From Trueperaceae bacterium (GTDB taxonomy: Bacteria > Deinococcota > Deinococci > Deinococcales > Trueperaceae): a stretch of 64,000 bases of DNA. The stretch is from the NCBI GenBank assembly GCA_036381035.1, contig DASVDQ010000024.1:97742-161741 (forward strand), in the 5' to 3' direction. Under the pieces are notes generated by a model. That model searched no databases. It was not told the DNA's origin and saw only the letters and a program-made list of their open reading frames with translations. Each line of letters opens with the position of its first letter. Positions within the stretch are counted from its first letter, which is position 1. The position numbers and the translations under genes are program-made. Below, piece after piece: positions 24,463-43,822 of this stretch.

Positions 24463-25005
24463 CTAGCGCGCGGGCACCCTCACGACCGTGAGCGCGTTCG
24501 AGCCGTAGCGGTGGAGCCGCGCCGGCGCGCCCTCCAGGCCGGGCGGCAGCGCGGGCGCGAAGCCGGTCGGGTGCTGCAGCACGTAGACGCCGCCCGGCCT
24601 GGCGGCGCCGGAGGCCAGCACGCCGAGGAAGGCCTCGCGCAGGTCGAGGGGGTAGGGGGGAGCCGCGAACACGACGTCGAACTGGCCAGGGTGCTCGGCG
24701 GCGTAGGCCAGGGCGTCGCCGCGCACGACCCGCACGGGCAGCCCCAGGCTGCGGGCGTTGCGCGCGATCACCGCCGCGGCCTCCTTGGCGAGCTCGACGC
24801 AGACGACGTCGAAGCCGCGGCTGGCGGCCTCGAGGCCGACGGCGCCGGAGCCCGCGTAGAGGTCTAGGAACCGCCCCCTGGGCTCGAAGGCGACGATGTC
24901 GAAGAGTGCCTCGCGGAGGCGCGCCGGGCTGGGACGCGTCCCCCGGCGCGGCGTCTCGATGGCGCGTCCCTTGGCGCTGCCGCCGATGATGCGAGGCCTG
25001 GACAT
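24463..25005 (-). CDS. rsmD: 16S rRNA (guanine966-N2)-methyltransferase RsmD
   Basis: Trimmed to ATG 25005 (MSRPRIIGGSAKGRAIETP...RPSPARLREALFDI...LDLYAGSGAVGLEAASRG...VFAAPPY). TACCCT lies 6 nt upstream. Confidence 0.85.
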   Translation of the reverse strand: MSRPRIIGGSAKGRAIETPRRGTRPSPARLREALFDIVAFEPRGRFLDLYAGSGAVGLEAASRGFDVVCVELAKEAAAVIARNARSLGLPVRVVRGDALAYAAEHPGQFDVVFAAPPYPLDLREAFLGVLASGAARPGGVYVLQHPTGFAPALPPGLEGAPARLHRYGSNALTVVRVPAR

Positions 25006-25177
25006 GCGCGCAGGGTAACCGCGGCGAGCTTCGTCCGCCGGCGCAACGGGGCCGCTGCGTCGCACGGTCCGCTGGCGCGGGCCCCTCCACGGCACCGGCG
25101 AGGGCCGCCCGCCGCGTGCGCGCGGAGGACACGGCCCGGCCCGGCCGGCTCGGGGCGCCGGGGTAGAGTGGGGGACC

Positions 25178-26068
25178 GTGATCCGCAGCCTAGCGGCCGA
25201 CGAGCTGCCGTGGTTCGTGGGCCGCGCGCTCGCCTTCCTCGGCCACTCCGACCCGCAGGGGCTGGCGCTCAGGCTCGCCGCGCGCTTCGGGGACCCGCGG
25301 GCCGACGCGCGCGGCTGCCGCGTGCTGGCGCGAGCCGGCACCGCGCCGTGCGCCGGCGTCCACGTCCTGGCGCCGCACCCGGACGACGACGCCAGGCGCG
25401 TCGAGCTCTCGAGCCCCTGGCACGACGACGACCCCGAGGCGTTCGCCGAGCTGGTGGCCCACGTGCTGGCCGGCCACGACCACGACTCGGCGCTGCTGCG
25501 CCTCGACGCGGTGCCGCGGCGCAGGCGCGACGAGCTGGCCGCGCGCCTGGCGACCCTCGGCTTCCGGCCCGAGGAGGTCACGCTGATGAGCTTCGACCTC
25601 TCGCAGGTGCCGCCGCTGGGGAGCCCCCTGCTGCTCGAGGCCTGGTCGGAGGAGGCCGACAGGCGCTTCCGGTCCTTCTACGCCGGCGCCGAGGACCGGC
25701 CCGTCACCGACGCCGGCTGGGCCTACCTGAAGCGCAGGCACGGGCCGTTCCAGCCCGACCTGTGGTTCCTGGCCCGCGAGACCCTCGACCAGGAGCCGGT
25801 CGGTTACGCCTTCTGCGGGCTCGTGGCCAGGCGCGTCGACGGGCGGTACACGCTCGACGCCGTGGGCGTCGCGCGGGAGCTGCGCGCCGACTCGGCGATG
25901 CTCAGGCGCCTCGTGATCTCGGTCCTGCAGGAGCTGGCCTCGTTCTCGCCGGTCGGCGCCGTCGACGCCGAGGTGTCCCTGAGCGACGGGAAGCTCGGCG
26001 ACATCCTCAGGCTCGTGGGCTTCGCCCCCGTGATGCGCTCGCCGGTGCTGGTGAAGCGCCCGGCCTAG
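25178..26068 (+). CDS. Hypothetical protein, possibly tandem GNAT-fold acetyltransferase
   Basis: 296-aa ORF with good coding bias. TAGAGT lies 8 nt upstream of the GTG. The C-terminal half (VGYAFCGL...LDAVGVARELR...) weakly resembles GNAT motifs. Confidence 0.55.
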   Translation: MIRSLAADELPWFVGRALAFLGHSDPQGLALRLAARFGDPRADARGCRVLARAGTAPCAGVHVLAPHPDDDARRVELSSPWHDDDPEAFAELVAHVLAGHDHDSALLRLDAVPRRRRDELAARLATLGFRPEEVTLMSFDLSQVPPLGSPLLLEAWSEEADRRFRSFYAGAEDRPVTDAGWAYLKRRHGPFQPDLWFLARETLDQEPVGYAFCGLVARRVDGRYTLDAVGVARELRADSAMLRRLVISVLQELASFSPVGAVDAEVSLSDGKLGDILRLVGFAPVMRSPVLVKRPA

Positions 26069-26112
26069 GCGCCGTTGGGGCGGACCGCCCGGCCGCCGGG
26101 GGAGGGGCCCGC

Positions 26113-26544
26113 CTAGCGGCCGTGCCGGGGCAGGTACTTCTCCCAGATCGGGTCGATGTCCGGCATGACGCCGTAGGCGCTCGTGAACATGAAGCGCGGC
26201 GCGTACGGCTGACGCCGCAGGCGCATGCGGGCCTCCTCCGGGGTGCGGTCGCGCTTGCGGGCGTTGCACGCCTTGCAGCAGGCGACGACGTTCTCCCACG
26301 TCGTCGGCCCGCCGCGGCTGCGGGGCACGACGTGGTCGAGCGTGAGGTCGTGGGTGCGCCTGCCGCAGTACTGGCAGACGTGGTCGTCGCGGCGGAAGAC
26401 GTTCTTGCGGTTGAAGGCCACGCGCTGGCGGAACGGCGTGCGCACGAAGCGCTTCAGCCTGATCACGCTGGGGACGGGGAAGACGGCGCTGGGCGACCTC
26501 AGCACCTTGCCCGACTCCTCGACGCGCTCGGCGACCTCGTGCAT
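26113..26544 (-). CDS. HNH endonuclease (minimal ORF; conserved N-terminus continues upstream without a canonical start)
   Basis: The HNH/zinc-ribbon core is CQYCGRRTHDLTLDHVVPRSRGGPTTWENVVACCKACNARK. The frame stays open upstream and encodes RVLILNASYEPLHVCSVKRAVSLL, which belongs to this family. There is no in-frame ATG, GTG or TTG until the ddl stop codon. Confidence 0.8.
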   Translation of the reverse strand: MHEVAERVEESGKVLRSPSAVFPVPSVIRLKRFVRTPFRQRVAFNRKNVFRRDDHVCQYCGRRTHDLTLDHVVPRSRGGPTTWENVVACCKACNARKRDRTPEEARMRLRRQPYAPRFMFTSAYGVMPDIDPIWEKYLPRHGR

Positions 26545-26886
26545 GAGCAGCGATACGGCGCGCTTGACCGAGCAGACGTGCAGCGGCTCGTAGCTGGCGT
26601 TGAGGATCAGGACGCGGCCGGAGTTGAGGTTCGACAGGGGCGTGCCGAGGGAGGCGCCCGCGAGGGCCGCACCGCCACCTGGCGAGCCGTCGACGACGTC
26701 GTCCTCGGGCTCGGCGAGCAGGCGTTCCAGGTCTAGGTCAGCGTGGTGGTCGGCCGCGCACCTCCGGTCACGCCGCGCATCATAACCGCGTCGGAGCGGC
26801 GGACGCGTGGCCGAGCGGGCCGAGCGCCCGGGCGGGCGCCGAGGTCGCGCGCGCCTGCTGGGCGCGCGGGCCAGCCGCGCGGGGGC

Positions 26887-28131
26887 CTAGCGACGCTCCA
26901 GGGCCAGCTCGACGAGGCGCTCGATGAGCTCCGGGTAGGAGACGCCGGCCGCCTGCCAGAGGAGCGGGTACATGCTGTGCCGCGTGAAGCCGGGGATCGT
27001 GTTGATCTCGTTGACGAGCAGCCGACCGTCGGGCAGGTAGAAGAGGTCGACGCGGGCGAGCCCGGCGGCGTCGACGGCGGCGAACGCGCGCAGCGCCATG
27101 GCGCGGGCGCTGCGGGCGACCTCCTCGGGCACGTCCGCCGGGACGATGAGGTCGGCCAGGCCGTCGGTGTACTTGGCCTCGTAGTCGTAGAAGGCGGCGG
27201 CGCCGTCGCGCACGCGGACCTCGCCCACGCCGCTCGCTACGGGCCTGTCGTTGCCCAGCACCGCGACCTCGAGCTCCCTCGCCCCCACCGCGGCGGCCTC
27301 TACGATCGCCCGCCTGTCGAAGCCGAGCGCGGCGGCCACGGAGGCCCGCAGGTCGGCGGGGTCGTCGACGCGCGAGACCCCGATCGACGAGCCGAGGTTC
27401 GCCGGCTTCACGAACACGGGCGTGCCGAGCTCGCGCGCCGGCGCCAGGGCGGCCTCGGGGTCGCTCGCGAAGGCGTGGCGCGTCACGCCGCGGTGCTCGA
27501 CCTGCGGCAGGCCGGCCGCGGCGAACACGGCCTTCATCGCCAGCTTGTCCATCGACACGGCGCTGCCCAGCACGTCGCTGCCGACGAAGGGCAGGCCCAT
27601 GAGCTTGAGGAGACCCTGCACGCTGCCGTCCTCGCCGAAGGGCCCGTGGAGGAGCGGGAAGACGACGTCGAACGAGCCGCCGGCGTCGGTGAGGCTGCGC
27701 GCCAGGGCGGCGGTCCGCGCGGGCTCGGCGTCGCCGGCGGCGCCGGCGGTCCTCGGCGCTTCCGCGTCCGCGTCGCGGTCGCCCGGGGCGCCGCGGGTCG
27801 GCCGTCCCGGACAGGCCCCGCCTCCTTCCGCCGGGTCCCCGACGGGCCGCCCGCCCCTCGCCTCGCCGTTCGGCAGGGGCGGGGGAGCCGCGCCCAGGAG
27901 GCGAGCCGACGCCTCGAGCCCCAGCGCGGCGCCGTCGCGGCCGATGACCAGGGGCACGACCTCGAGCCGCGGCGAGGCGCTCACGGCCTCGAGGACCGAG
28001 CGCGCCGAGGCGAGCGAGACCTCGTGCTCCTCGGAGCGCCCGCCGCAGAGGAGCAGGACCCGCCGGGCGCTCACCGGCGGGACCCGTCCGGAGCGGCCGG
28101 CCAGGCGGTGGGGTCGATGTGCATGTTGCAC
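26887..28131 (-). CDS. ddl: D-alanine--D-alanine ligase with a ~60-aa low-complexity insertion
   Basis: Motifs: LLLCGGRSEEHEVSL, FPLLHGPFGEDGSVQGLL, SMDKLAMK and EINTIPGFT. The start is GTG 28131 (inside the AT-rich island, leaderless-like) or GTG 28074. Confidence 0.85.
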   Translation of the reverse strand: MQHAHRPHRLAGRSGRVPPVSARRVLLLCGGRSEEHEVSLASARSVLEAVSASPRLEVVPLVIGRDGAALGLEASARLLGAAPPPLPNGEARGGRPVGDPAEGGGACPGRPTRGAPGDRDADAEAPRTAGAAGDAEPARTAALARSLTDAGGSFDVVFPLLHGPFGEDGSVQGLLKLMGLPFVGSDVLGSAVSMDKLAMKAVFAAAGLPQVEHRGVTRHAFASDPEAALAPARELGTPVFVKPANLGSSIGVSRVDDPADLRASVAAALGFDRRAIVEAAAVGARELEVAVLGNDRPVASGVGEVRVRDGAAAFYDYEAKYTDGLADLIVPADVPEEVARSARAMALRAFAAVDAAGLARVDLFYLPDGRLLVNEINTIPGFTRHSMYPLLWQAAGVSYPELIERLVELALERR

Positions 28132-28147
28132 ATGATGTGCATGTTAT
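28117..28147 (-). promoter_or_regulatory. AT-rich nested palindrome/direct repeat (candidate ddl promoter-operator)
   Basis: The sequence is ATGTGCA-tgt-TGCACAT-g-ATGTGCA-tgttat. The 11-mer ATGTGCATGTT is repeated with an 18-bp period. The element overlaps the GTG 28131 start and a TAACAT box on the minus strand. Confidence 0.5.
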
Positions 28148-28183
28148 GGCCGGTGCCCACGCGGGTCAAGGGCGCGCCCCGGC

Positions 28184-28960
28184 TCACGCCCGCCACGACG
28201 GCTCGCGCTTCTCGAGGAAGGCGCGGACGCCCTCGCGGATCTCGTCGCCCGCGCGGATGGCCACGTTGACCTCGACGGCGGCCGCCAGGCCCTCCTCGAA
28301 GGTCAGGCCGGGCAGCCTAGCGAGCAGGCCCTTCGTCGCCGCCAGGGAGCCGGGGGCGTTCCGCGCCAGGCGCCGCGCCAGCGCCACCGCGGCCTCCAGG
28401 ACCGGCGTCTCCTCGACCACGCGGTTCACGAGGCCGATCTCGGCCGCCCGGCTCGCGTCGACCAGGTGCGCGCCCAGCAGCAGCTCGCGGGCGTGCTTCT
28501 CGCCGACCTGGCGCAGCAGCAGCACGGCGACGAGCGCGGGCACGAAGCCGATGCGGGTCTCCGTGTAGCCGAGCCGCGCCTCGGGGGCGGCCAGGGCCAC
28601 GTCGCAGGCCGTGACGATGCCCGCCCCGCCGGCCACCGCCGGACCGTTCACGGCCGCGACCACCGGCTTGGGGCAGCTGTGGATGGCGGTCAGGAGCCCG
28701 GCGAGCTGGAGCGTGTCCTCCCGGTGCTGCTCGCGCGTGAGGGCGGCCGTCGCCTCCAGCTCGCGCAGGTCGAGCCCGGCGCAGAACGCCTCGCCGGCGC
28801 CGGTGATGACCACGGACCGCACGGCGTCGTCCGCCTCGGCGTCCGCCAGCGCCGCGCGCAGCTCCTCGCGCAGCGCGCGCGAGAGGGCGTTCCTGACCGC
28901 CGGGCGGTCGAGGGTCAGCACGCGCACGGGCCCGTCGTCGTGGATGGTCACGTCAGGCAT
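28184..28960 (-). CDS. Enoyl-CoA hydratase/isomerase (crotonase family)
   Basis: Trimmed to ATG 28960 (MPDVTIHDDGPVRVLTLDRPAVRNAL...ITGAGEAFCAGLDL...VAAVNGPAVAGG). TACGAT lies 6 nt upstream. Confidence 0.85.
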   Translation of the reverse strand: MPDVTIHDDGPVRVLTLDRPAVRNALSRALREELRAALADAEADDAVRSVVITGAGEAFCAGLDLRELEATAALTREQHREDTLQLAGLLTAIHSCPKPVVAAVNGPAVAGGAGIVTACDVALAAPEARLGYTETRIGFVPALVAVLLLRQVGEKHARELLLGAHLVDASRAAEIGLVNRVVEETPVLEAAVALARRLARNAPGSLAATKGLLARLPGLTFEEGLAAAVEVNVAIRAGDEIREGVRAFLEKREPSWRA

Positions 28961-29105
28961 GGGGCGATCGTACGCGCGCCGAGAGGGCGAGGGACGCGGG
29001 AAAGCTCGCCGACCTAGCCCGTGCGAAGCTTCCGACGGCCGCGCGCCGGCCCGGCGGCATACGCTCCTGGCACGGCCCTCCCGGGCCCGTGATGCGGAGG
29101 TGAAG

Positions 29106-30002
29106 GTGACCCCGAAGCGTCTCAGCCTCGTCGCCCTGGCGGCGGTCGCCGCCCTGGTCCTGTCGTCGTGCGCCCCGGGCGCGCGCATGCTCTCGGCCCC
29201 CACGTTCGCGCTCGACGCGCGCGGCTCCGGCTTCGTGCGCATCGACCCGCCAGGCGTGGGCGACGGCTCCGCCCTCTTCCGCCTCTCCCTCGTCGCCCAG
29301 AACCCGAACCCCTTCGCGCTGCGCCTCTCCGCGCTCGAGGGCGACCTGTTCCTCCAGGACGTGCGCGCCGCCGCCGTCAGCTTCCGCGGCGGGCTCGAGC
29401 TGCCGGCCAGCGGCTCCTCGCGCGTCGTCGTCGACGTGCGCGTGCCGCTCGCGGCCGCGCCGGCCCTGCTCGAGTCGCTGGCGAACGTTCTGGGCGGGGG
29501 GAGGGCGCGCTACCGCGTCGACGCCTCCGTGGCCGTGGAGGTGCTCGGCACCACGCAGCGCTTCCCGCGCTTCACGCTCGTCGAGGGCTCCCTCGAGACC
29601 GGCCTCGCCCTCGTGGCGCCGAGCGTCGCCCTCGGCTCCGCCAGCCTGCGCGTCGAGGGCCTGAACCGCGTCGCCGTCGACATGGAGCTGAACGTCACGA
29701 ACCCCGGCCCGATCGGCTACCTGCTCTCCTCGCCACAGCTCGTGCTGCAGGTCGGCGGGCAGGACGCCGCCGTCGCCCGCCTCGAGCCGGTGCCCGTGCC
29801 GGCGAACGGCAGCGCCGTCGCCACGCTGTCCTTCGCGTTCGACCCGTTCCGCCTCGGCTCGGCGCTGGCCGATCAGGTGCGCGCCGCCGCCGCCGGAGGC
29901 GGCCTGGCCGTCACGCTGCGGGGCGGCTGGGGCCTCGACGCCGCTGGCATCGCCACGCTCGACCTCAGCCCGACCCGCCTCCTCGAGGCCGTCGTGCGCT
30001 AG
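29106..30002 (+). CDS. Lipoprotein with two LEA_2 (WHy-like) domains
   Basis: GTG 29106 lies 5 nt after GGAGG; GTG 29100 is also possible. The lipobox is LVLSSC. There are two repeats of the LEA_2 pattern (LVAQNPNPFALRLSALEGDLFL..., LNVTNPGPIGYLLSSPQLVLQV...). Confidence 0.7.
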   Translation: MTPKRLSLVALAAVAALVLSSCAPGARMLSAPTFALDARGSGFVRIDPPGVGDGSALFRLSLVAQNPNPFALRLSALEGDLFLQDVRAAAVSFRGGLELPASGSSRVVVDVRVPLAAAPALLESLANVLGGGRARYRVDASVAVEVLGTTQRFPRFTLVEGSLETGLALVAPSVALGSASLRVEGLNRVAVDMELNVTNPGPIGYLLSSPQLVLQVGGQDAAVARLEPVPVPANGSAVATLSFAFDPFRLGSALADQVRAAAAGGGLAVTLRGGWGLDAAGIATLDLSPTRLLEAVVR

Positions 30003-32205
30003 GGGCGCCGCGCCGCCCCGGCAACCACCAGTTCCAGCGGCCGGCGAGCAGCATCAGCGAGGGCACGAGGGCGAGACGCACCAGCGTGGCGTCGAGGACG
30101 ATGGCCACGGTGAGCCCGAGGCCGAGCGCCTTGATCAGCTCGACGTGGCTGAACATCAGGATCGCGAACACCGTGACCATGACGGCCGCGGCGCTGGTGA
30201 TCACGCCGCCCGTCGCCGCCACGGCGTGCACCACGGCGTCGCGGTCCGACAGGCCGCGCTCGTGGCCCTCGCGTATGCGCGACACCAGGAACACCTCGTA
30301 GTCCATCGACAGGCCGAACACCATCGCGAAGACGAAGAGCGGGGCCGACGTGTCGACGAAGCCCAGCGTGGCGTCGCCGACGAGGCCCGCCAGGGCGCCG
30401 TCCTGGAAGGTCAGCACCAGCACGCCGAAGGCGGCGGCCACCGTCAGCGCGTTGAGCAGCACGGCCTTCAGGGGGATCAGCAGCGAGCGGAACGCCCGGC
30501 CCAGCAGCAGGGTCGTGGCCAGCCCCACCACGGCCAGGGCCAGCGGGAAGCGCCCGTAGACGGCCCGCGCCGACTCGAGGTGCTCGACGTACCGGCCGCC
30601 CACCAGGCCCGTGAGGCCGGTCGACGCCAGGGACGCCCGCAGGCGCTCCAGCAGCTCGGCGCCCGCCGCCGGCGTCAGGGCGGCGTCCGGCAGCACCCTG
30701 AGCAGGGCGTAGCGTCCCGTCTCGCTCACCGTGGCCTCCACCAGCGGGGCGACCTCGCTGCGCCGCGCGGTCTCGGCCGAGGCGTAGAACTGGTAGAGGA
30801 GCAGCCGCGGCACGCTGCGCAGGGCGAACGGCGAGACGACGGTCTTGACCCCGGGCAGGCCCGTGAGCGCGCGGTCGAGCAGCGACACCGACCGCACGCC
30901 AGCGGGAGAGAAGAAGCCGGCGTCGCCCAGGTCGACGACGACGTCGAAGGGCGCCAGCAGCCCGGCCAGGCCCTCGTCGGCGAGCGCCTCGACCACCCGG
31001 CGCGCCTCGGTCTCGGGCGACATGCCGCGCGCGCCCGGCTCGCCCACCTGCAGCCGCAGCGCCGGCAGGGCCAGGGCGACGAGCACGACCACCCCGGCCA
31101 CCGCCCACAGGGCGGGGCGCCCGAGGATCCTGTCGGCCTGGCGGCGCCAGAAGCGGCGGCTGCGGGTGCCCGGCCGCCGGCGCGACACGCGCAGCCTGTC
31201 GACGTTCTCCCCCAGGAGGGCCAGCGTCGCCGGCACGGCCGTGATCGCCACCAGCACGGCGACCACGAGCACCACGGTCGTCGCCACGCCTATCGAGCGG
31301 ATGAACCCCACCGGCGGCACCAGCAGCGAGAGCAGCGCCAGGACGACGGTGAGGCCGCTGAAGGCCACGGCCTTGCCCGCCTCCCTCGTCGTGCGCTCGG
31401 CGGCGTCGCGCGCCCCCAGGCCGGCGGCCAGCTCCTCGCGGAAGCGGGTCACCATCAGGAGCGCGTAGTCGATGCCCGTGGCGAGGCCGAGCATCGTGAC
31501 CACGGTGCGCGTGAAGACCGCGAACTCCAGCGCCTGGCCGACCGCGAACAGCAGGGCGGAGGAGACGACGACGGTCGTCACCGCGGAGACCAGCGGCAGC
31601 CCGGCCGCCACGACCGCGCCGAACGCCAGCAGCAGGATCGCCAGCGACAGCGGGAGGCCGTAGAGCTCGGCGCGCCTGGCGTCGCGCTGGCTCACCTCCT
31701 CGACCTCCATGAGCGTGGCCACGCCGCCGGCGAGCTCGAAGGTCGCCGCCGGCGCGTCCGCGAACGCCCGCCGCACCGCGTCCACGGTCGCGCGGGCGTC
31801 GTCCTGCGACTGGGGCTCGAGGCCGACGACGAAGAGGGCCCGCCCGGCGGCGTCGCCGCCCGCGCCCAGGCCCGCGGCGCCGCTCCCGTCCCGCACGTAG
31901 GCGACGCCGGGGAGCGCGGCCACCGCCTCCGCGGTCCGCCCCGCCGCCTCGCGGAACGCGGCCCCGCCCGCGCCAGCGGCCGGCGTGGCGACGGCGACGA
32001 GCACCTCGCCCTGAGGGAGAGCGAACTCGCTGCCGAGGAGGTCGGCGACGCGGCGGGCGACGCCCGTCGCCGGCGGCTCCGGCTCGGCCGTCAGCACCTC
32101 GCCCACGCGCGCCGCGAAAGGCGCCGCGGCCAGGGCGAGCAGCAGCCAGGCGGCCAGGACGCGGCGCGGGTGGCGCGCTACGGTGCGGGCCAGGGGCGCG
32201 AACAC
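29965..32205 (-). CDS. MMPL/RND-superfamily membrane transporter
   Basis: 746 aa with two blocks of TM helices separated by soluble loops. The motifs GIDYALLMVTRFREE and GLSMDYEVFLVSRIRE are typical of MMPL-family proteins. GTG start 9 nt after the ABC ATPase stop. Confidence 0.85.
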   Translation of the reverse strand: MFAPLARTVARHPRRVLAAWLLLALAAAPFAARVGEVLTAEPEPPATGVARRVADLLGSEFALPQGEVLVAVATPAAGAGGAAFREAAGRTAEAVAALPGVAYVRDGSGAAGLGAGGDAAGRALFVVGLEPQSQDDARATVDAVRRAFADAPAATFELAGGVATLMEVEEVSQRDARRAELYGLPLSLAILLLAFGAVVAAGLPLVSAVTTVVVSSALLFAVGQALEFAVFTRTVVTMLGLATGIDYALLMVTRFREELAAGLGARDAAERTTREAGKAVAFSGLTVVLALLSLLVPPVGFIRSIGVATTVVLVVAVLVAITAVPATLALLGENVDRLRVSRRRPGTRSRRFWRRQADRILGRPALWAVAGVVVLVALALPALRLQVGEPGARGMSPETEARRVVEALADEGLAGLLAPFDVVVDLGDAGFFSPAGVRSVSLLDRALTGLPGVKTVVSPFALRSVPRLLLYQFYASAETARRSEVAPLVEATVSETGRYALLRVLPDAALTPAAGAELLERLRASLASTGLTGLVGGRYVEHLESARAVYGRFPLALAVVGLATTLLLGRAFRSLLIPLKAVLLNALTVAAAFGVLVLTFQDGALAGLVGDATLGFVDTSAPLFVFAMVFGLSMDYEVFLVSRIREGHERGLSDRDAVVHAVAATGGVITSAAAVMVTVFAILMFSHVELIKALGLGLTVAIVLDATLVRLALVPSLMLLAGRWNWWLPGRRGAPSARRPRGGGSG

Positions 32206-32214
32206 CGTCGGCGG

Positions 32215-32976
32215 TCAGACGCTGAGGAAGCGCTCGATGTCGGCCTTGACCTGCGGTCCCGCCGTCTCGCCGGCCACGCGCCCGTCGCGCAGGAACACCA
32301 CGCGGTCCGCGGCCTGCGCCGCGACGGGGTCGTGCGTGACCATGACGACGGTCCAGCCGTGGGAGTCGACCCCGTCGCGCAGCAGGGAGAGCACCTCGGC
32401 GCCGGTCCTGCTGTCGAGGTTGCCCGTCGGCTCGTCGGCGAGGACGACGGCGGGGTCGTTGATCAGCGCCCGCGCCAGGGCCACCCGCTGCCGCTGGCCG
32501 CCCGAGAGCTGGCGCGGACGGTGCTCGAGCCGGTCGGCGATCCCCAGGCGCGCCGCCAGCTCCTCGAGCCTGGCGGCGGCCTCCTCGCTCCTGCCGGCCA
32601 CCTCGGCCGGCAGGAGGACGTTCTCCCTGGCCGTGAGGTTGGGGATCAGCTCGAAGGACTGGAAGAGGAACCCGAGCCTGTCGCGGCGGAGCGCCGTCAG
32701 CTCGTCGTCCGACATGCCGGCGGTGGACCTCCCCTCGATGGCCACGCTGCCCGAGTCGGGCGCGTCGAGCAGGCCGATGAGGTGGAGCAGCGTCGACTTG
32801 CCGCTCCCGCTCGGGCCCATCACGGCGACGAACTGGCCGCGCGGGACGAGCAGCGTCACGCCCTGCAGCGCCGCGATGCGCTCGTCGCCGAGGGCGTAGG
32901 TCTTGTGGAGGTCGGTGGCGGCGAGGGCGAAGCGCCCGGCGGGCTGCGGGCCGGGCGAGGCGGGCGTGTCAGGCAT
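32215..32976 (-). CDS. ABC transporter ATP-binding protein, MacB/LolD-like
   Basis: Motifs: Walker A GPSGSGKST, FQSFELIPNLTARENV, signature LSGGQRQRVALARAL and Walker B VVLADEPTGNLD. Confidence 0.9.
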   Translation of the reverse strand: MPDTPASPGPQPAGRFALAATDLHKTYALGDERIAALQGVTLLVPRGQFVAVMGPSGSGKSTLLHLIGLLDAPDSGSVAIEGRSTAGMSDDELTALRRDRLGFLFQSFELIPNLTARENVLLPAEVAGRSEEAAARLEELAARLGIADRLEHRPRQLSGGQRQRVALARALINDPAVVLADEPTGNLDSRTGAEVLSLLRDGVDSHGWTVVMVTHDPVAAQAADRVVFLRDGRVAGETAGPQVKADIERFLSV

Positions 32977-35536
32977 GTTGGCTCCAGTTCGCCAGCGCCC
33001 TGGCGGGCGCGAGCTGTCCGGCGCGCCGCGCCGGCAGCAGGGAGGCTACCAGCCCCACCAGCGGCGAGGCCAGCAGCGCCAGCAGCGCCAGGGACGCGGG
33101 GAACACGGGCTCGAGTCGGAAGCCCGTCACGGCGCCGGCGCCGGTGGTGACGACGCGGGCCAGCAGCAGCCCGAAGGCCGCGCCGACGGCGCCGCCTATC
33201 GCGGTGATGACGATGCCCTCGGCGACGACGAGCCGCCTGAGCCCGGCCCTCGTGAGGCCGATCGTGCGCAGCACGGCGATCTCGTGGCCGCGGCTGACCA
33301 GGTTCATGCCCAGGGTGTTCGCGACGCCGAGCACGGCCACGATCAGGGCGATCACCAGCAGGACGCGCGTCGTCGCGAACGCCTGGTCGGTGATGCGCAG
33401 GACGTTGCGGCGGTAGTCGACGTTGAGCGTCGCGTCGAGGTAGAGGTCGGGGAACTCCTCGAGCAGGCGCTCGCGCACCGCCGCGGGGTCTTCGCCGGGG
33501 TCGACGGTGAGGATGAAGAGGTCGGGCGTGCCGCCCCCGAAGTCGGGCAGCCGCTCGATGCTCGCCAGCACCGACTCGCCGCCGCCCGTGAAGTCGACGA
33601 TCACGCCGGCGACAGGGAACTCCTCGAACCCGCGGGAGGTGCGCAGGGCGATGGTGTCGCCGACGTCGAAGCCGTGGCGGTCGAGCATCGTGTTCGAGAC
33701 GAGGACGGCGTCGCCGCGCTCCAGGGCCGCGTGCCCGCTCACCGGGTCGCCGTGGCCGGGGATGTACTGCAGGCTGCCGAAGCCCGACTCGGGGTCGAAG
33801 CGCTCGGGGTCGGCCAGGACCACCGCGATCGACCGGCCCCGCGGCTGCTCCTCGCTCCTGAACCGCACGAGGCGTATGCCGACGCCGCTGGCGACGTCGA
33901 CGCCGGGCACGGCCTCGGCCCGGGCGGCGAAGTCCGCCGGGAAGCTCACCGGCGTCGTGACGTAGAGGTCGCCGACGACGGTCGTGTCCATCCACGAGGC
34001 GATGGCGTCGTTGATGCTCGCGACCATCGAGCCCACGCCGATCACGAGGCCGGTCCCCACGACCACGGTGCCGATGGCCACGCCGTTGCGCGGCGCGTTG
34101 CGCTCGGCGAAGCTCACGGCCAGGCGGCCGGGCGCGCCGAAGAGGCGCAGCAGGGCGGGCCTCAGCAGGCGCAGCACCGGCCCGAGCAGGCCCGGGGCGG
34201 CCAGGGAGACGCCGGCGAAGAACAGGGCCAGCGCCACGCACACGGCCACCAGGGCAGCGAACGGGGAGAAGGGCACGAGCGCCAGCCCGGCGCCCACGAG
34301 CATCAGCGCCGCGCCGAGCCAGACGAGGCGCCTGTCCGGCGCCGGCTCCGGGCGCTGCACCGCGGCCATGGGCGCGGTACGCGAGGCGCTCCAGGCCGGC
34401 AGCACGCCGGCCACCAGCGCGGCGAAGACGCCGAGCACGCTGGCCAGGAGCACGCTGCGCACCGGCACCACCAGCGTGCGGAACTCGAAGCCCAGCGTGG
34501 CGGCGTTCAGCGCGGTCACGACGTAGGAGAGCAGCAGGCCCAGCAGCACGCCGGCGACGATGCCGAGCGCCGCGAGCGCCAGGGCCTCGTAGAGCGCCAG
34601 CCGCATCACGGCCCGCCTCGTCAGGGCGATCGTGCGGAGCAGCGCGTGCTCGCGCGTGCGCTCGACGACCGAGGCCATGAACGTGTTGTAGGCGAGGAAG
34701 GCGCCGAGGGCGAGCAGGGTGGCCGCCAGCACCGACAGACCCGACTGCAGCGTCTCGGTGAAGCCGGCCGCGAAGTCGCCGGTGACGGCGGGGAGAGTGA
34801 CGGCGAGGTCGTCGCCCACCAGGGCCTGCAGGCCCTCCCTCACCTCGTCGACCTGCCCGGCCTCGGCCACGAGCACCTCGATCAGGGAGACGCGCCCCCG
34901 CAGGTTCACGAGCTCCTGGACGTCGCTGATGTGCATGACGCCGACGCGTCCGCCGTTCGTGCTGGCGGCGCCGACGCCGTCGTCGAGGAGGCCCGTGACC
35001 GTCAGCTCGGCGCGCCCGGCGGCGAACAGGAAGGGGACCACGTCCCCCACCTCGATGCCGCGCAGCGCGGCGAAGCCGTCGGCGACGGCGATGCCGTTCG
35101 TCCCGGCCCGCGGCAGGCTGCCGGCGGACAGCTCGACTGGCAGGTCCTCGGCGGCCTCGGTGACGCGTCCCTGCACCTGGAAGCCGCTGTCGACGCCGGG
35201 GATCGCCGACCGCTCGAACTCCTCCACGGCGCGCTCCGGCTCGGCGCGCGTGTTCAGCACGGGGTAGGCGGCCGCCACGCCGGGGTAGGAGGCGACCTCG
35301 CCGAGCACCGGCTCGGCGGGGAAGACGAGGCGTCCCGAGGCGCCCGGCGTGACCACGAGGTCGGCCTTGCCGGCCGCGGCCTGCAGGGTGCTGCGGAGGT
35401 TCGCCTCGACGTTGTCGCCCACCGACAGCGTCGTGAGGACGGCGGCGATCCCGAGGCCGATGCCGAGCACCGTGGCCAGGGAGCGCCAGGGGTGCCTGAG
35501 CAGGTTGCGCCAAGCGAGCCTCGACAGCGTGCTCAC
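32969..35536 (-). CDS. ABC transporter permease with two FtsX/MacB-type domains
   Basis: 855 aa. The N-terminus (LAWRNLLRHPWRSLATVLGIGLGIAAV) is followed by a large extracytoplasmic domain and an FtsX 4-TM bundle, and the same arrangement is repeated in the C-terminal half. TACACT lies 6 nt upstream of the GTG. Confidence 0.85.
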   Translation of the reverse strand: MSTLSRLAWRNLLRHPWRSLATVLGIGLGIAAVLTTLSVGDNVEANLRSTLQAAAGKADLVVTPGASGRLVFPAEPVLGEVASYPGVAAAYPVLNTRAEPERAVEEFERSAIPGVDSGFQVQGRVTEAAEDLPVELSAGSLPRAGTNGIAVADGFAALRGIEVGDVVPFLFAAGRAELTVTGLLDDGVGAASTNGGRVGVMHISDVQELVNLRGRVSLIEVLVAEAGQVDEVREGLQALVGDDLAVTLPAVTGDFAAGFTETLQSGLSVLAATLLALGAFLAYNTFMASVVERTREHALLRTIALTRRAVMRLALYEALALAALGIVAGVLLGLLLSYVVTALNAATLGFEFRTLVVPVRSVLLASVLGVFAALVAGVLPAWSASRTAPMAAVQRPEPAPDRRLVWLGAALMLVGAGLALVPFSPFAALVAVCVALALFFAGVSLAAPGLLGPVLRLLRPALLRLFGAPGRLAVSFAERNAPRNGVAIGTVVVGTGLVIGVGSMVASINDAIASWMDTTVVGDLYVTTPVSFPADFAARAEAVPGVDVASGVGIRLVRFRSEEQPRGRSIAVVLADPERFDPESGFGSLQYIPGHGDPVSGHAALERGDAVLVSNTMLDRHGFDVGDTIALRTSRGFEEFPVAGVIVDFTGGGESVLASIERLPDFGGGTPDLFILTVDPGEDPAAVRERLLEEFPDLYLDATLNVDYRRNVLRITDQAFATTRVLLVIALIVAVLGVANTLGMNLVSRGHEIAVLRTIGLTRAGLRRLVVAEGIVITAIGGAVGAAFGLLLARVVTTGAGAVTGFRLEPVFPASLALLALLASPLVGLVASLLPARRAGQLAPARALANWSQHA

Positions 35537-35706
35537 CGCGCCAGTGTACCGGCGCGCTGCACGCCGGGCGTCCCCGCTCTCGCGGAGACCTAACCGTGGC
35601 GTGTTACCTTCGCCTCGCGACGGGGCCGCAGCCAGCGGCCCGACAGGCTGCCGGCGAGGACGGCCCGGCCGGGCCCCGCCGCGCCAGGGAAGGCGAGCTG
35701 CCTGCG

Positions 35707-36945
35707 GTGAACATCCTCTTCGTAGCCGACGACCTCTACCCCGGCTTCGGCGGCCAGGCCAAGGCCACCGAGGGGCACATCGAGGCCCTGCTGGCGCGCG
35801 GCCACGCGGTGAGGGTGATCGCCGGCGCCGAGCCGCGGCCCAGCCGCCCGCCTCCCGGGGTGCTCGTCGAGAGGCTGCCGTCGTGGCGCCTGGGCGCCGC
35901 TCAGACGCGCTTCGCGCACCCGCTGGTGAGCCGCATCGCCCCGCACGTCAGGTGGGCCGACGTCGTCCACGCCAACACCCCGGCCGCCCTCACGGCCGTG
36001 GTGGCGCACCTCGCGCGCCGCCGCGGCGTGCCCGTGGTGATGGGCGTGCACGCGCAGCTCGAGACCTCCACGCTGCAGGCGCCGCTAGTGGGGCCGCTCG
36101 TGGAGAGGTTCCTCACCGGCTGGTACCGCTACCTCTTCGGCCTCGCCGACCTGCTCGTGACGCCCACCCCCTACGCCGCACGGCTCGTCACCCACTTCAC
36201 CGACAGGGAGCCGGTGCCGGTGTCCAACGGCATCGACCTCGGCGCCTGGGAGGGGCTGGCCCCGCGAGCCGCCGGCGACGGGACCCGCCGCCTGGCGTTC
36301 GTCGGCCGGCTGTCGCCCGAGAAGCGCCCCCTCGACCTGCTGCCCCTGATGCACGAGCTGCCCGCGAGCTACCGCCTCACCGTCGCGGGCCACGGTCCCC
36401 TGGAGCCGGAGATGCGCCAGGCCGTGGCGCGGCGGGGCCTCTCCTCCCGCGTCGACCTGCTCGGCTTCGTCGGGGAGCGGGAGAAGCTCGAGCTCCTGTG
36501 CGCGACCGAGGCGTTCCTGATGCCGTCTCCCGCCGAGCTGCAGAGCATAGCCACGCTCGAGGCCATGGCCTCCGGCGCCGCCGTGGTCGCCTGGGGCTAC
36601 GCCAGCAGCGCCGTGCCCTCGCTGGTGCAGGAGGCGGGCGGCGGCGTTGTCGTGCCGCCCGGCGACCCCCGCCGCCAGGCCGCGGCGATCGTCGCGCTCA
36701 TGGAGGACGAGCGCGCGCTGGCCGAGGCGCGGGCGAACGCCAGGGCCTACGCCCGCACGCACGACGTAGCGCTGAGCGCGGCGCGGCTCGAGGAGCTCTA
36801 CGGCGGCCTGGTCGCGGCGGCGCGGCGGCGCGGCGGCCACCGCGCGGCGGCGCGCGCCGCGGACGCCCGCCTCGCGCGGGCCGCCGGCGCCGAGGCCCGC
36901 GGCGCCAGGGGGCGCCTGCCGCAGGGCGAGGGCGCCAGGACGTGA
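35707..36945 (+). CDS. GT4-family glycosyltransferase
   Basis: VNILFVADDLYPGFGGQAKATEGHIEALLARGHAV is a typical GT4 N-terminus. The C-terminal E..G....EA...G motif is present (LMPSPAELQSIATLEAMASGAAVV). Track ORF 35596.. was trimmed to GTG 35707. Confidence 0.8.
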   Translation: MNILFVADDLYPGFGGQAKATEGHIEALLARGHAVRVIAGAEPRPSRPPPGVLVERLPSWRLGAAQTRFAHPLVSRIAPHVRWADVVHANTPAALTAVVAHLARRRGVPVVMGVHAQLETSTLQAPLVGPLVERFLTGWYRYLFGLADLLVTPTPYAARLVTHFTDREPVPVSNGIDLGAWEGLAPRAAGDGTRRLAFVGRLSPEKRPLDLLPLMHELPASYRLTVAGHGPLEPEMRQAVARRGLSSRVDLLGFVGEREKLELLCATEAFLMPSPAELQSIATLEAMASGAAVVAWGYASSAVPSLVQEAGGGVVVPPGDPRRQAAAIVALMEDERALAEARANARAYARTHDVALSAARLEELYGGLVAAARRRGGHRAAARAADARLARAAGAEARGARGRLPQGEGART

Positions 36946-38771
36946 TCGTCGCCGTCACCGGCGCCACCGGCGGGCTCGGCCGGGCGTTGGTGCGGCTCCT
37001 CACGTCCGCCGGGCACAGGGTGAGGGCGGCGGTGCGCACGCCCGCGCAGGCCGAGCTGGCCGCGGCGCTCGGCGCCGAGCCCGTGCAGGTCGACCTCACG
37101 AGGCCGGAGACGCTGCCCGGTCTGGTGGCCGGGGCAGCCGTCGTGCACCACCTCGCCGCCTGGATGGGCCGTCCGCCCGGCCTCGCGCGCGCCGTGAACG
37201 TCGACGGCACCCGCGCCGTGGCGCGGGCCGCCGCGGAGGCGGGCGCCCGCCGGCTCGTGCTGGCCAGCAGCATCGCCGTCTACGGGCCCGTCGCGGGGGG
37301 CGTCGTCACCGAGAGCACGCCCCTGCGCACCGTCGGCGACCCCTACGGCGACTCGAAGGTCGCCGGCGAGGCGGCGGCGAGGGAGGCCCTGGCGGGCAGC
37401 GGCACCGAGCTCGTGGTCCTCAGGCCGACGATGATCTACGGCCCCGCCTCGGGCTCGTGGACGCTGGCGCCCGTCGCCGCGCTGCGGCGGGGCCTGCCGG
37501 TGCTCCTCGGCGACGGCTCCGGCCTCCTCGACGTCGTCTACGTCGACGACGTGGCCGCGGCGTTCGCCGCGGCGGGCGAGGCGCCCGGCGCCGGCGGGCT
37601 GGCGCTGAACGTCGGCGGCGAGAGCGTGACGGCCAGGGAGTTCTTCGGGGCCTACGCGCGCATGCTCGGGGTGCCCCTGCGCGGCGTGCCGGCCTGGCTG
37701 GCGCGCGCCGGCGCGGCCGCAGCCGGCCGCGTCACGGCGCTGCTCCCCGGCGTCGACGCGTTCGCGCCGGAGACCATCGGCACGCTGCTGAGCCGCGCCA
37801 CGTTCGACCACGGCGCCGCCGCGCGCGTCCTCGGCTACCGCCCGCGGGTGGGGCTGCACGAGGGGATGAGCCGCACCGCCGCCTGGCTGCGCGAGGCGGG
37901 TCTGGCGCCGGGGCCGCGCTCGGCGCTCGTGGTGGGCGCCTCCTCCGGCCTGGGCCGCGCGGTCGCCGACGAGCTGGCCCGCCGCTACGTGCGCGTCTAC
38001 GCCGCCGACATGGCGCCGGCCTCGCCGGTGGCCCGCGACGCGGGTCCCGCCCCAGTGGACCACCTCGCCGTCGACGCCACCTCGCAGGAGGACCTCGCCC
38101 GCGCCGTCGGCGAGGTGGAGGCGCGCGAGGGCCACCTCGACCTGCTCGTGACGACGGTCGGGTCGCTGAGGCCCGGCTCGCTGGAGTCGCAGCCGTGGGA
38201 GGACGTCACGGCGCAGCTCGAGCTCAACGCGCTCGCGCCCGTCCTGGCGGCGCGGGCGGCCGCGCCCGGCATGAGGGCGCGCGGGCGGGGGCGCATCGTG
38301 AACGTCAGCTCGACGAACGCGCTCCTCGCCACGCCGTTCATGGGTGCGTACTCGGCGGGGAAGGCCGCGCTGGAGAGCTTCACCGACGCTCTGCGCCTGG
38401 AGCTGAGGCCGTTCGGCGTCGACGTCGTGCTGGTACAGCCCGGCGCGATGCGCACGGGCTTCGCCGAGCGGGCCAAGGAGCTGCTCGACGCCGAGGCGGG
38501 CCGGTCCGGGGAGCCGTGGGCGGCCTACCTCAGGCGGCTGAAGGACTCGGGGCTGTGGGGCGAGGCCCGCGCCGCGGACCCCGCCGAGGTGGCGCGCGTC
38601 GTCGCCCGCGTGGCCCTGTCCAGGCGCCCGCCCGCCCGCGTGGCCGGCACCAGGGAGGTGCCGCTGCTGCGCGCGTTCGCCGCGCTGCCCGACGCCCTCA
38701 AGGACGAGGTGTTCGTGAGACCGCTGGGTCTGCGCCGTCCCCGCGCACGGCGCGCCGGGCGGGGCGCCTGA
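36942..38771 (+). CDS. Fusion protein: NAD-dependent epimerase/3beta-HSD-type reductase (N) + classical short-chain dehydrogenase (C)
   Basis: GTGA overlap with GT4. The N-domain shows VIVAVTGATGGLGRAL...YGDSK. The C-domain, from about 37918, shows ALVVGASSGLGRAV...NVSSTNA...YSAGKAALE (TGxxxGxG, NxSS, YxxxK). Confidence 0.8.
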   Translation: MIVAVTGATGGLGRALVRLLTSAGHRVRAAVRTPAQAELAAALGAEPVQVDLTRPETLPGLVAGAAVVHHLAAWMGRPPGLARAVNVDGTRAVARAAAEAGARRLVLASSIAVYGPVAGGVVTESTPLRTVGDPYGDSKVAGEAAAREALAGSGTELVVLRPTMIYGPASGSWTLAPVAALRRGLPVLLGDGSGLLDVVYVDDVAAAFAAAGEAPGAGGLALNVGGESVTAREFFGAYARMLGVPLRGVPAWLARAGAAAAGRVTALLPGVDAFAPETIGTLLSRATFDHGAAARVLGYRPRVGLHEGMSRTAAWLREAGLAPGPRSALVVGASSGLGRAVADELARRYVRVYAADMAPASPVARDAGPAPVDHLAVDATSQEDLARAVGEVEAREGHLDLLVTTVGSLRPGSLESQPWEDVTAQLELNALAPVLAARAAAPGMRARGRGRIVNVSSTNALLATPFMGAYSAGKAALESFTDALRLELRPFGVDVVLVQPGAMRTGFAERAKELLDAEAGRSGEPWAAYLRRLKDSGLWGEARAADPAEVARVVARVALSRRPPARVAGTREVPLLRAFAALPDALKDEVFVRPLGLRRPRARRAGRGA

Positions 38772-39756
38772 GCCACCGCGGCGGCCGGCGGGAGAGCAGC
38801 AGCCAGGCGCACAGCGGCCCGAGCAGGTAGGCGACGTAGAACGTGCCGGCGCGCCACAGCGCGACGGGCGCGGCGATCGAGGCCGCGTCGGCGCTCGAGT
38901 CGACGACGAGGCCGACCATCAGCTCGGTGAAGCCGGAGGCGCCAGGCGTGGGGACGAAGAAGCCGACGAGCGAGATGATCGAGAGCACGGAGAGGACGTC
39001 GAGGAGCCGCGCCTGCGCCCCGTAGGTCGCCAGCAGGGCCCACAGCAGGATGAAGTTCGCCAGCCAGCCGACGATGTTCACGCCGTGCAGGTAGGCGAAC
39101 CTCGTCAGGGGCAGGTCCCTGAACGCGACGGCGCTCACGTAGTACTCGCGCCCCATGCGCGCGAGCCGGTCGCGGAAGCGGCGCAGCGGACGCCACCTCG
39201 TCGCGCGCCGCATGACGCCGTAGAGCGCGCCGGGGAAGCGCGCCAGGACGATGGCGCCGACGAGCGCTAGGGCCGCGGCGGCGATCGCGAGCGCGGTGAC
39301 GAAGGGCGGCAGGGCCAGGGGGCTCACCGCCACGATGTACACGAGGCCCACGGGGATCAGCACGCCGAGGGCCGCCAGGTCGAGCACGAAGAGCTGCACG
39401 GCGACGCCGACGCTGGTGCCGAGGGGCACCCCGGAGCGCTCGAGGGCCAGGACCAGACCGGGCGCCCCGCCGGTGCCCGACGGGGTCATCGCCGAGCCGA
39501 ACACCTGACCCACGTGGGCCGTGAAGGCCTCCCAGGGCCCGAGCCTGTGCCCCTGCGCCCCGACGAGCGCCTGGATCTTGGCCACGGGCGCGATCCACAG
39601 CAGGACCAGGCTCAACACGCTGACGACGGCGAGGTCCGTGCGCAGCTCGGCGGCGGCGTAGGTGGCCGGCGAGAAGATCGACTCGCGGGTCGCCAGGTAG
39701 AGCCCGCCGCAGCCCAGGAGCAGCGAGAGCGCGAACAGGCCGACGAGCCGCTTCAC
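38698..39756 (-). CDS. LPG_synthase_TM / UPF0104 flippase-like integral membrane protein
   Basis: 352 aa and polytopic. The motifs MTPSGTGGAPGLVLAL and FVPTPGASGFTE resemble the MprF flippase-domain family. GTGA overlap with the upstream GT gene. The 3' end overlaps the convergent gene by 74 nt. Confidence 0.7.
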   Translation of the reverse strand: MKRLVGLFALSLLLGCGGLYLATRESIFSPATYAAAELRTDLAVVSVLSLVLLWIAPVAKIQALVGAQGHRLGPWEAFTAHVGQVFGSAMTPSGTGGAPGLVLALERSGVPLGTSVGVAVQLFVLDLAALGVLIPVGLVYIVAVSPLALPPFVTALAIAAAALALVGAIVLARFPGALYGVMRRATRWRPLRRFRDRLARMGREYYVSAVAFRDLPLTRFAYLHGVNIVGWLANFILLWALLATYGAQARLLDVLSVLSIISLVGFFVPTPGASGFTELMVGLVVDSSADAASIAAPVALWRAGTFYVAYLLGPLCAWLLLSRRPPRWLRRPARRAVRGDGADPAVSRTPRP

Positions 39757-43814: not shown

Positions 43815-43822
43815 GGCTGGGT

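Follow-up and report, generated by a model that had tools for sequence, protein, structure and literature searches.

Three transporter genes and an adjoining lipid-synthesis locus were analysed in a 64,000-nucleotide (nt) stretch of DNA from a soil bacterium of the Trueperaceae (assembly GCA_036381035.1, contig DASVDQ010000024.1, positions 97,742 to 161,741; hereafter the window). The transporter genes encode the permease (double-FtsX) and the ATPase of an ATP-binding cassette (ABC) system and a transporter of the MMPL family, and the lipid locus encodes, among others, an SPT-like alpha-oxoamine synthase, a double-GNAT acyltransferase (GNAT2), a reductase, a GT28 glycosyltransferase and a flippase-like protein. 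The best reading of the combined results, to which we give a probability of about one half, is that the MMPL protein is the dedicated exporter of the lipid locus and that the ABC system is an extractor of a broader range of hydrophobic cargo, which may assist in that export.

The operon consists of exactly three minus-strand genes, of which the MMPL gene is the last. The permease and ATPase genes overlap by 8 nt (ATGCCTGA), and 9 nt lie between the stop codon of the ATPase gene and the GTG of the MMPL gene. An earlier note on this DNA had described such an operon, with this overlap and gap, and had assigned its genes to a dual-FtsX permease, a MacB/LolD-like ATPase and an MMPL transporter; the arrangement was confirmed in the sequence, and the assignments by Pfam and NCBIfam matches. 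The G+C content of the window is about 75%. The relatives nearest to its genes are in metagenome-assembled genomes of Trueperaceae/Deinococcaceae, in the phylum Deinococcota.

Co-occurrence of transporter and lipid genes in Trueperaceae

All 128 Trueperaceae species genomes were searched for the permease, MMPL, double-GNAT, SPT-like and GT28 genes, and a genome was scored as lipid-positive when an SPT-like or a double-GNAT gene was present. Permease orthologs with 40% identity or more were found in 119 of the 128 genomes (120 when hits were scored by E-value), and the MMPL gene was found in 92. The MMPL gene was present in 86/101 lipid-positive versus 6/27 lipid-negative genomes, and the permease in 93/101 versus 26/27. 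When the 81 genomes of at least 90% completeness were considered, the MMPL gene was associated with the lipid genes (odds ratio 14.5, Fisher p = 4e-5) and the permease was not (p = 0.34), being present in 15/15 lipid-negative genomes.

Permease, MMPL and lipid genes occurred together in 80 genomes. The permease was accompanied by neither of the others in 20 genomes, by lipid genes only in 13 and by the MMPL gene only in six; MMPL and lipid genes occurred without the permease in six, lipid genes alone in two, and one genome had none of the three. The two transporter modules are therefore found apart in 33 genomes with ABC genes and no MMPL gene and in six genomes with the reverse. The permease gene was intact, with no internal stops, in 26/27 lipid-negative genomes, and in at least 20 genomes the ABC pair was intact in the absence of SPT, GNAT2, GT28 and MMPL genes. 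Because the ABC genes are retained even in relatives with no lipid gene left, the cargo range or the role of the ABC system would be broader than the locus lipid. On this distribution, a link to the lipid appears plausible for the MMPL protein and unsupported for the ABC system as a dedicated part.

Co-occurrence of the operon with the lipid locus had been proposed in the earlier note as a check, and its outcome is divided, in that the MMPL gene follows the locus and the ABC pair remains intact without it. The note had also held that independent occurrence of operon or locus in relatives would speak against a functional connection. Such occurrence was observed in part, as ABC genes without lipid genes and as lipid loci without the ABC genes (eight genomes) or without the MMPL gene (15 genomes). 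The three genes do not form an indivisible exporter unit, since deletion variants keep either module alone.

Four of the six lipid-negative genomes with an MMPL gene belong to genus g25, in which a divergent GNAT2-like gene lies beside a divergent MMPL gene; two of the four yielded a GT28-like gene as well. With this arrangement, the same type of pump may serve another N-acyl lipid. The g25 genomes have no SPT ortholog, and their MMPL proteins show 40-45% identity (for example at locus L104, contig C13 of genome G088). In G085 (C310:3992-11781) the GT28-like gene lies between the GNAT2-like and MMPL genes, and no GT28-like gene was detected in G087 and G088.

Gene order at the syntenic site

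At 35 Trueperaceae loci, with MMPL identity as low as 49%, the permease-ATPase-MMPL triad is conserved and is always preceded by genes of the lipid locus. In genomes with both genes of a pair on the same contig, permease and MMPL genes lie no more than 3 kb apart in 67/70, permease and GNAT2 genes no more than 15 kb apart in 55/60, and MMPL and GNAT2 genes no more than 15 kb apart in 47/56. The position of the operon next to an SPT-like lipid locus, reported from the window alone, is thus a family-wide property, as the permease-GNAT2 distances indicate. The single-contig family genome G121 (3,260,398 bp) contains the full, adjacent arrangement from the SPT-like gene to permease, ATPase and MMPL.

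Comparison of 35 fetched regions by tblastn for site content identified one syntenic site, which is flanked on one side by a small GNAT gene, an unknown gene and efp-accBC, and on the other side by genes for a LEA_2 lipoprotein, an enoyl-CoA hydratase (ECH) and ddl, and which varies in content. Most genomes carry the full set. Lipid and ABC genes without the MMPL gene were found in G003, G020 and G127; lipid genes and the MMPL gene, with the SPT-GNAT2-...-MMPL series kept and the ABC genes cleanly missing, in G055 and G100; reductase-like, GT28-like and ABC genes in G056 and G065; and the ABC genes alone in G062, G064, G109, G033, G111, G116 and G115. In the ABC-alone genomes the ABC genes have no internal stops and GT28 is also missing; the site adjoins a tRNA-dihydrouridine synthase gene in G062, and that gene followed by efp in G116. 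Since the MMPL gene and the lipid genes flank the ABC genes on opposite sides, their joint absence with retention of the ABC genes requires two deletions. In G029 the MMPL gene lies beside GT28, flippase-like and GT4 genes, with the SPT and GNAT2 genes elsewhere.

At loci L011, L033 and L024-L026, the SPT-like, double-GNAT, reductase, GT28, (flippase-like), permease, ATPase and MMPL genes are all on one strand, and the pair of GT4 and epimerase-SDR genes is missing. The head-to-head position of operon and lipid locus, from which the earlier note had argued for co-regulation, is present in the window but, judged from these gene orders, is a lineage-specific result of the insertion of the GT4 and epimerase-SDR genes, other genera having all genes co-directional.

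Several further rearrangements were observed. In G024 (L114, L113; C4), the ATPase, MMPL and lipoprotein genes are together beside flippase-like and GT4 genes, and the permease gene is about 350 kb away with no adjoining ATPase gene. In genus g22 (L086 in G056, L120 in G065), divergent reductase-like and GT28-like genes (42-44% identity) precede the ABC genes, with no SPT or GNAT2 gene; G065 also has a full SPT-GNAT2-reductase-GT28-flippase-like set on another contig. The GNAT2 homolog of G101 (C8:2887-3960) is a pseudogene with 10 in-frame stops, and the SPT, MMPL and permease genes of this genome are on other contigs.

Relatives outside the family

A sample of 251 genomes of Deinococcota contained orthologs of the permease only in Trueperaceae and in six genomes of a sister family (38-46% identity); they were absent from the large Deinococcus-like and Thermus-like groups. 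Because of this restriction the permease does not belong to a phylum-wide housekeeping system, and a Lol system of that kind was rejected as its identity. Beside the permease gene in the six regions fetched from the sister family (L106-L111), no counterpart of the ATPase, MMPL or lipid genes of the window was found; L111 alone had an ATPase-like match (31%), on the opposite strand at a distance of 2.7 kb. Homologs of the MMPL protein, with 36-44% identity, were found in Meiothermus, Deinococcus, Gemmatimonadota and one Chloroflexota genome, none with adjoining ABC or lipid genes.

The single-sequence collection scan with GNAT2 returned only close relatives, and Gemmatimonadota were reached through the genomes behind the MMPL loci. 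Tight SPT-GNAT2-reductase operons are present there at loci L127-L134 (genomes G336, G323, G321, G331, G333, G325, G319 and G334).

Strength of the association and alternative explanations

A number of observations weigh against assigning the MMPL protein to the lipid locus. Related genomes have a common history, so that the raw numbers overstate the association: when genera were counted instead of genomes, the odds ratio for the MMPL gene was 6.25 (Fisher p = 0.088), and p was 1 for the permease. An AccC tree of 92 genomes was used to correct for phylogeny. In eight independent pairs of genomes differing in lipid status, the MMPL gene changed in the same direction in about three, in the opposite direction in about none and remained unchanged in five (sign test p ~0.25), and the permease did not follow the lipid genes at all. 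As the AccC tree recovered the GTDB genera poorly, its counts of changes (six for the permease, 13 for the MMPL gene and 16 for the lipid genes) are upper bounds, and the test on pairs is noisy and underpowered. Overall, the association of the MMPL gene with the lipid genes is weak, consistent in direction and short of significance.

Other observations of this kind concern the genes themselves. The 15 lipid-positive genomes without the MMPL gene include incomplete assemblies, but G003, G020 and G127 are clean cases, so that the lipid can be made, or its genes at least kept, without this pump. The genes are unlinked in genus g13, G025 and G054. Deinococcus and Meiothermus genomes with MmpL3-like homologs (about 40% identity) have no GNAT2, which indicates that the MMPL family is not tied to this lipid. 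All 17 of the 17 Gemmatimonadota genomes examined have an SPT-GNAT2-reductase operon (38-53% identity) with no adjoining transporter; formation of this operon in another phylum points to an ancient conserved core pathway, with a logic resembling that of Spt-CerS-CerR. The SPT-like protein is nearest to SPT models yet falls under all NCBIfam SPT cut-offs, and the double GNAT matched no curated family, so the sphingolipid-like nature of the product is putative. Nothing relevant was found in the literature on sphingolipids in Truepera.

These points lend themselves to an alternative in which the neighbourhood reflects history only, the operon being a general envelope-maintenance or efflux unit located between ddl/ECH and efp-accBC, with neither pump carrying the locus product. 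The same flanking genes bound a region that varies by insertion and deletion, the operon has a conserved promoter box of its own (described below), the ABC genes can persist by themselves, g13 shows no linkage of the loci, no transporter adjoins the Gemmatimonadota trio, and the phylogeny-aware tests were not significant. On the other hand, the MMPL gene remains beside lipid genes after rearrangements that removed the ABC genes or moved the SPT gene (G055, G100, G029 and G085), it was lost from 21/27 lipid-negative genomes though the retained ABC genes separate it from the lipid genes, and all contrasts that vary point the same way. We regard a purely historical neighbourhood as unlikely.

A further alternative along the lines of the earlier note, that the ABC system and the MMPL protein make up one dedicated, obligatorily coupled exporter of the locus product to the outer membrane, appears somewhat less probable again. 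It would account for the tight operon with its overlap and short gap, for the adjacency of permease and MMPL genes in 67/70 genomes and for their family-wide position beside the lipid locus, and there is a precedent in phthiocerol dimycocerosate (PDIM), for the export of which MmpL7, DrrABC and a lipoprotein are all required (PMC11539658); the operon here is likewise adjoined by a conserved lipoprotein gene. However, the modules separate freely (33 genomes with the ABC genes only and six with the MMPL gene only; G055 and G100 versus G003, G020 and G127), the ABC genes are intact in nearly all genomes without the lipid locus (26/27), the operon includes no outer-membrane or carrier component, and the genome has no match to the LolA family.

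Identity of the MMPL protein

The MMPL protein matches PF03176 in two stretches (240 bits, E 3e-71), and its hydropathy profile shows 12 transmembrane (TM) segments and two small periplasmic domains. Its nearest known protein is MmpL3 (7nvh_A; E 2e-71 by phmmer). Both Asp-Tyr pairs of the proton relay are kept, D246-Y247 in GIDYALLMVTRFREE and D635-Y636 in SMDYEVFLVSRIRE, and align with the MmpL3 motifs in TM4 and TM10. The domain pair, the 12 TM segments and the relay pairs together place the protein, at the level of sequence, in the MMPL family of the RND superfamily, and its type is that of the lipid transporter MmpL3 rather than that of HAE1 drug pumps.

The protein failed every equivalog cut-off, including that of MmpL3 (NF052608; 265 versus 1400), and it stops after TM12, at 746 residues, without the C-terminal cytoplasmic domain of MmpL3. 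An HpnN-like identity was rejected on the TIGR03480 score (59 versus a cut-off of 752). Deinococcota are not known to make mycolic acids.

Identity of the ABC system

The permease contains two MacB_PCD and two FtsX stretches above the Pfam cut-offs, and hydropathy indicates a 4+2+4 TM topology, the two core domains of the MacB type being periplasmic. The AlphaFold model, for which 31 orthologs were used (pLDDT 79, pTM 0.69), found its best full-length fold match in E. coli YbbP (9ge6_A; E 4e-22, TM-scores 0.61/0.65, 17% identity), and LolE, LolC, MacB, BceB and HrtB matched single halves of the model. The ATPase matches PF00005 (118 bits) and is encoded directly after the permease in nearly all loci examined; its top NCBIfam matches are the MacB nucleotide-binding domain (NBD), DarD and LolD, each under its cut-off. 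The Walker A (GPSGSGKST), signature (LSGGQRQR), Walker B (VVLADEPTGNLD) and H-loop (VTHD) motifs are intact in the DNA.

The two proteins have the features of the type VII superfamily, namely 4-TM FtsX modules with a MacB-like core domain between TM1 and TM2, and a cognate NBD. Together with the full-length match to YbbP and the half matches to LolE, LolC and MacB, this identifies them, as far as model and sequence allow, as a type VII (mechanotransmission) ABC system of YbbP-like architecture, with mechanotransmission itself ascribed by class only. Judged by curated scores, the permease is no ortholog of YbbP, LolCE or MacB. It scored 20 bits against the YbbP equivalog NF041854, for which the cut-off is 999, so that the likeness to YbbP is one of architecture and fold only. 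No SGNH/TesA-like gene was present among the neighbours of the operon.

The half matches raise the question of a Lol function, in which the ABC pair would be a fused LolCE/LolD-like lipoprotein-release system, with the neighbouring lipoprotein as its client or partner and the MMPL protein unrelated to it. Superposition pairs the halves of the model with LolE and LolC, the top NCBIfam match of the N-terminal half of the permease is lolCE, the ATPase matches LolD, the lipoprotein gene adjoins the ATPase end more constantly than any other gene, and the ABC genes are kept in nearly all genomes of the family. Nevertheless, all Lol models scored far under their cut-offs (103 bits versus 362 for lolCE, 49 versus 439 for the LolE equivalog, and 209 versus 308 for LolD), which places the pair outside LolCDE, and the best full-length fold match is YbbP and not LolCDE. 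No match to LolA (PF03548) was found at E <= 0.01 in the host genome, which is 96% complete, although the control genomes, D. radiodurans included, have one. The absence of permease orthologs from the Deinococcus-like and Thermus-like groups and from eight Trueperaceae genomes would also be odd for an essential pathway, and a Lol function is very unlikely.

A resistance operon, combining MacB-type efflux of a drug, peptide or bacteriocin with an RND drug pump, is the least probable of the alternatives. In its favour, the ATPase scored best with the MacB NBD, with DarD (the exporter of darobactin) and with ABC families for bacteriocins, and the C-terminal FtsX module matches MacB. These matches are offset by an RND partner of the MmpL3 lipid type rather than the HAE1 drug type, by constant neighbours that are lipid-synthesis genes, by the lack of a peptide or biosynthetic gene nearby, and by the lack of MacA/HlyD membrane-fusion and TolC genes in or beside the operon in the loci searched, here and in relatives.

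Operon start and divergent spacer

The start of the operon on the minus strand reads TACACT-GGCGCG-GTG (plus-strand coordinates 35548..35534), and the GTG of the GT4 gene is located at 35707 on the plus strand, 170 nt from the permease start; the earlier note was accurate on both the TACACT-6 nt-GTG start and this spacing. A TA(C/G)ACT hexamer is found 6-9 nt ahead of the start codon in 20/21 orthologous loci, down to 52% protein identity, and the remainder of the spacer diverges. Such conservation is, from alignment, more than chance, and the -10-like box is a candidate promoter of a leaderless mRNA. Leaderless starts adjacent to a -10 element are reportedly common in Deinococcus, which fits the placement of the hexamer. 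The box is also kept in loci with a co-directional upstream gene; because it is kept in both layouts while the spacer diverges, the transporter operon looks like a transcription unit of its own.

The 170-nt spacer between the GT4 and permease genes contains a 37-nt block, GCTCTCGCGGAGACCTAACCGTGGCGTGTTACCTTCG, with an imperfect palindrome, TAAC-N8-GTTA. This block is kept among relatives of the same genus and its flanks diverge, suggesting that it may be an operator. No regulator gene was found near it. Scans for sigma-70 and terminator consensus sequences over 29000..36200 gave nothing useful in this DNA of 75% G+C.

Proposed function

Gene content, intact motifs, fold, synteny and the pattern of presence and absence were established as described; on this basis we infer a cargo, an order of action, a direction of transport and a hand-over to the LEA_2 lipoprotein or the outer membrane. 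The operon would encode two separable lipid-handling machines of the inner membrane under one start-proximal, probably leaderless, promoter. The lipid locus would build a glycosylated, N-acylated long-chain amino-alcohol, that is, a sphingolipid-like lipid, at the cytoplasmic face. The MmpL3-like pump, most likely driven by protons through the Asp-Tyr relay, would take this lipid out of the cytoplasmic membrane, as MmpL3 does with trehalose monomycolate. The YbbP-like ABC system would extract hydrophobic cargo from the outer leaflet; in this genome that cargo probably includes the product of the locus or a by-product, with the ABC system acting downstream of the flippase-like protein and the MMPL protein. 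That the LEA_2 lipoprotein or the outer membrane then receives the cargo is speculative. Export to the outer membrane, as the earlier note had it, is conjectural and not supported as stated, the operon having no periplasmic carrier or outer-membrane part and the genome no LolA match.

A more ambitious version is a relay with two engines, in which the SPT-like, double-GNAT, reductase and glycosyltransferase proteins make the lipid, the flippase-like and MMPL proteins expel it, the ABC system extracts it and the LEA_2 lipoprotein receives it on the way to an outer membrane free of lipopolysaccharide (LPS), without Lol, Lpt or Mla. Such a relay is doubtful; if true, it would define genetically, for the first time, how a bacterial sphingolipid-like glycolipid is exported.

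These results bear on how sphingolipids and similar envelope lipids move outwards from the inner membrane, and on how the outer membrane is filled in diderms that lack LPS, Deinococcota among them. According to work on Caulobacter, no flippase or transporter of bacterial sphingolipids has been identified as yet (PMC11087976), which gives the MMPL candidate some value. The locus supplies concrete, conserved candidates for export, and the series of deletions over 128 genomes splits a lipid-linked MMPL protein from a more general ABC system. If the lipid link fails, a YbbP-like type VII ABC system would still stand as a near-universal trait of one bacterial family, independent of the lipid locus.

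Features and neighbouring genes in the window

The features of the operon and its surroundings are listed in Table 1. The LEA_2 lipoprotein gene overlaps the 3' end of the MMPL gene by 38 nt; it abuts the end of the operon in 27/35 triad loci and the ATPase gene where the MMPL gene is deleted. Past it are the ECH gene and ddl.

Long plus-strand open reading frames (ORFs) at 25168..28269 are antisense shadows of minus-strand genes. Two of them, 26743..28269 and 25168..26736, were considered as flanking genes and rejected as shadows of ddl and its neighbours. In DNA of 75% G+C such shadow ORFs still yield tblastn matches of 40-60% in relatives.

Table 1. Positions of the operon, its candidate regulatory elements and the surrounding genes in the window
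Feature	Position	Strand	Basis
Double-FtsX (YbbP-like) type VII ABC permease, 855 aa	32969..35536	-	Pfam, hydropathy, AlphaFold model
ABC ATPase, MacB/LolD/DarD type, 253 aa	32215..32976	-	PF00005, NCBIfam, motifs
MmpL3-like RND (MMPL) transporter, 746 aa, 12 TM	29965..32205	-	PF03176, phmmer, hydropathy
-10-like hexamer TACACT, 6 nt upstream of GTG; candidate promoter	35543..35548	-	sequence, conservation
Conserved 37-nt block with imperfect palindrome; putative operator	35576..35612	.	spacer alignment
Lipoprotein with two LEA_2 domains, lipobox LVLSSC; convergent with operon	29106..30002	+	translation, Pfam LEA_2 x2
GT4 glycosyltransferase	35707..36945	+	Pfam
Fused epimerase + SDR protein	36942..38771	+	Pfam
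Core lipid locus	38698..45058	-	Pfam, NCBIfam, synteny
SPT-like alpha-oxoamine synthase	43823..45058	-	
Double-GNAT acyltransferase (GNAT2)	42699..43814	-	
CPBP/Rce1-like protein	41968..42693	-	
NAD reductase/epimerase	40979..41971	-	
GT28/UgtP-like glycosyltransferase	39753..40979	-	
Flippase-like LPG_synthase_TM protein	38698..39756	-	match to 'flippase-like domain' family
ddl	26887..28131	-	
HNH gene	26113..26544	-	
Methyltransferase	24463..25581	-	

Comparison with known systems

The ABC system most resembles E. coli YbbAP(-TesA) (PDB 9ge6; PMC12646458), which likewise has a single permease with two FtsX modules, two core domains and two linking helices (4+2+4 TM) and a separate MacB-type ATPase encoded alongside, and which has been proposed to extract hydrophobic cargo from the outer leaflet (PMC12646458). 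The two systems differ in sequence (17% identity) and in surroundings: the order here is permease followed by ATPase, and in place of a TesA-like hydrolase the neighbours are an MMPL protein, a LEA_2 lipoprotein and lipid-synthesis genes. LolCDE shares the FtsX and periplasmic core-domain fold, with permease halves that superpose on LolE and LolC and a LolD-like ATPase. In contrast to LolCDE, the permease here is a fused double protein with Lol scores under the cut-offs, the genome has no LolA match, and the system does not extend to the whole phylum.

Mycobacterial MmpL3, the exporter of trehalose monomycolate (PDB 7nvh, 6ajf), has the same 12 TM segments, two small periplasmic domains and both Asp-Tyr pairs, and it too is encoded beside genes for the lipid that it is proposed to export. 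The MMPL protein of the window differs in having no C-terminal cytoplasmic domain, in its score far below the MmpL3 cut-off (265 versus 1400), in a host without mycolic acids and in sharing an operon with an ABC system. HpnN, the hopanoid RND transporter, is similar as an RND transporter whose gene lies in the locus for the synthesis of its lipid cargo, which it carries to the outer membrane, but it belongs to another RND family (HAE3-like; score 59 versus 752), and there are no hopanoid genes here.

The combination of an ABC system with an MMPL protein, which had been called unusual, is uncommon but not new, as two precedents show. Export of PDIM in M. tuberculosis involves MmpL7, DrrABC and the lipoprotein LppX (PMC11539658, PMC8427324), so that an RND/MMPL pump, an ABC system and a lipoprotein at a lipid-biosynthesis locus are jointly implicated in moving one envelope lipid outwards. 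DrrABC, however, is an ABC-2 type exporter and not of the MacB/FtsX type VII, the MMPL subfamily is a different one, the lipoprotein here is of the LEA_2 type and not LppX/LolA-like, and the two engines here are evolutionarily separable. The TetR-ABC-ABC-MMPL-LolA-like operons of Bacteroidota (PG1175-81 and PIOMA14 loci; PMC10434189), compared by description, also bring ABC and MMPL genes together with a lipoprotein-type companion; they differ in their TetR regulator, LolA-like protein and iron regulation, their named ABC genes encode ATP-binding proteins, and no link to an SPT-like gene is reported for them. The Trueperaceae system is new in its class of ABC transporter, in its phylum, in being linked to an SPT-like locus and in the evidence that it offers for two separable engines.

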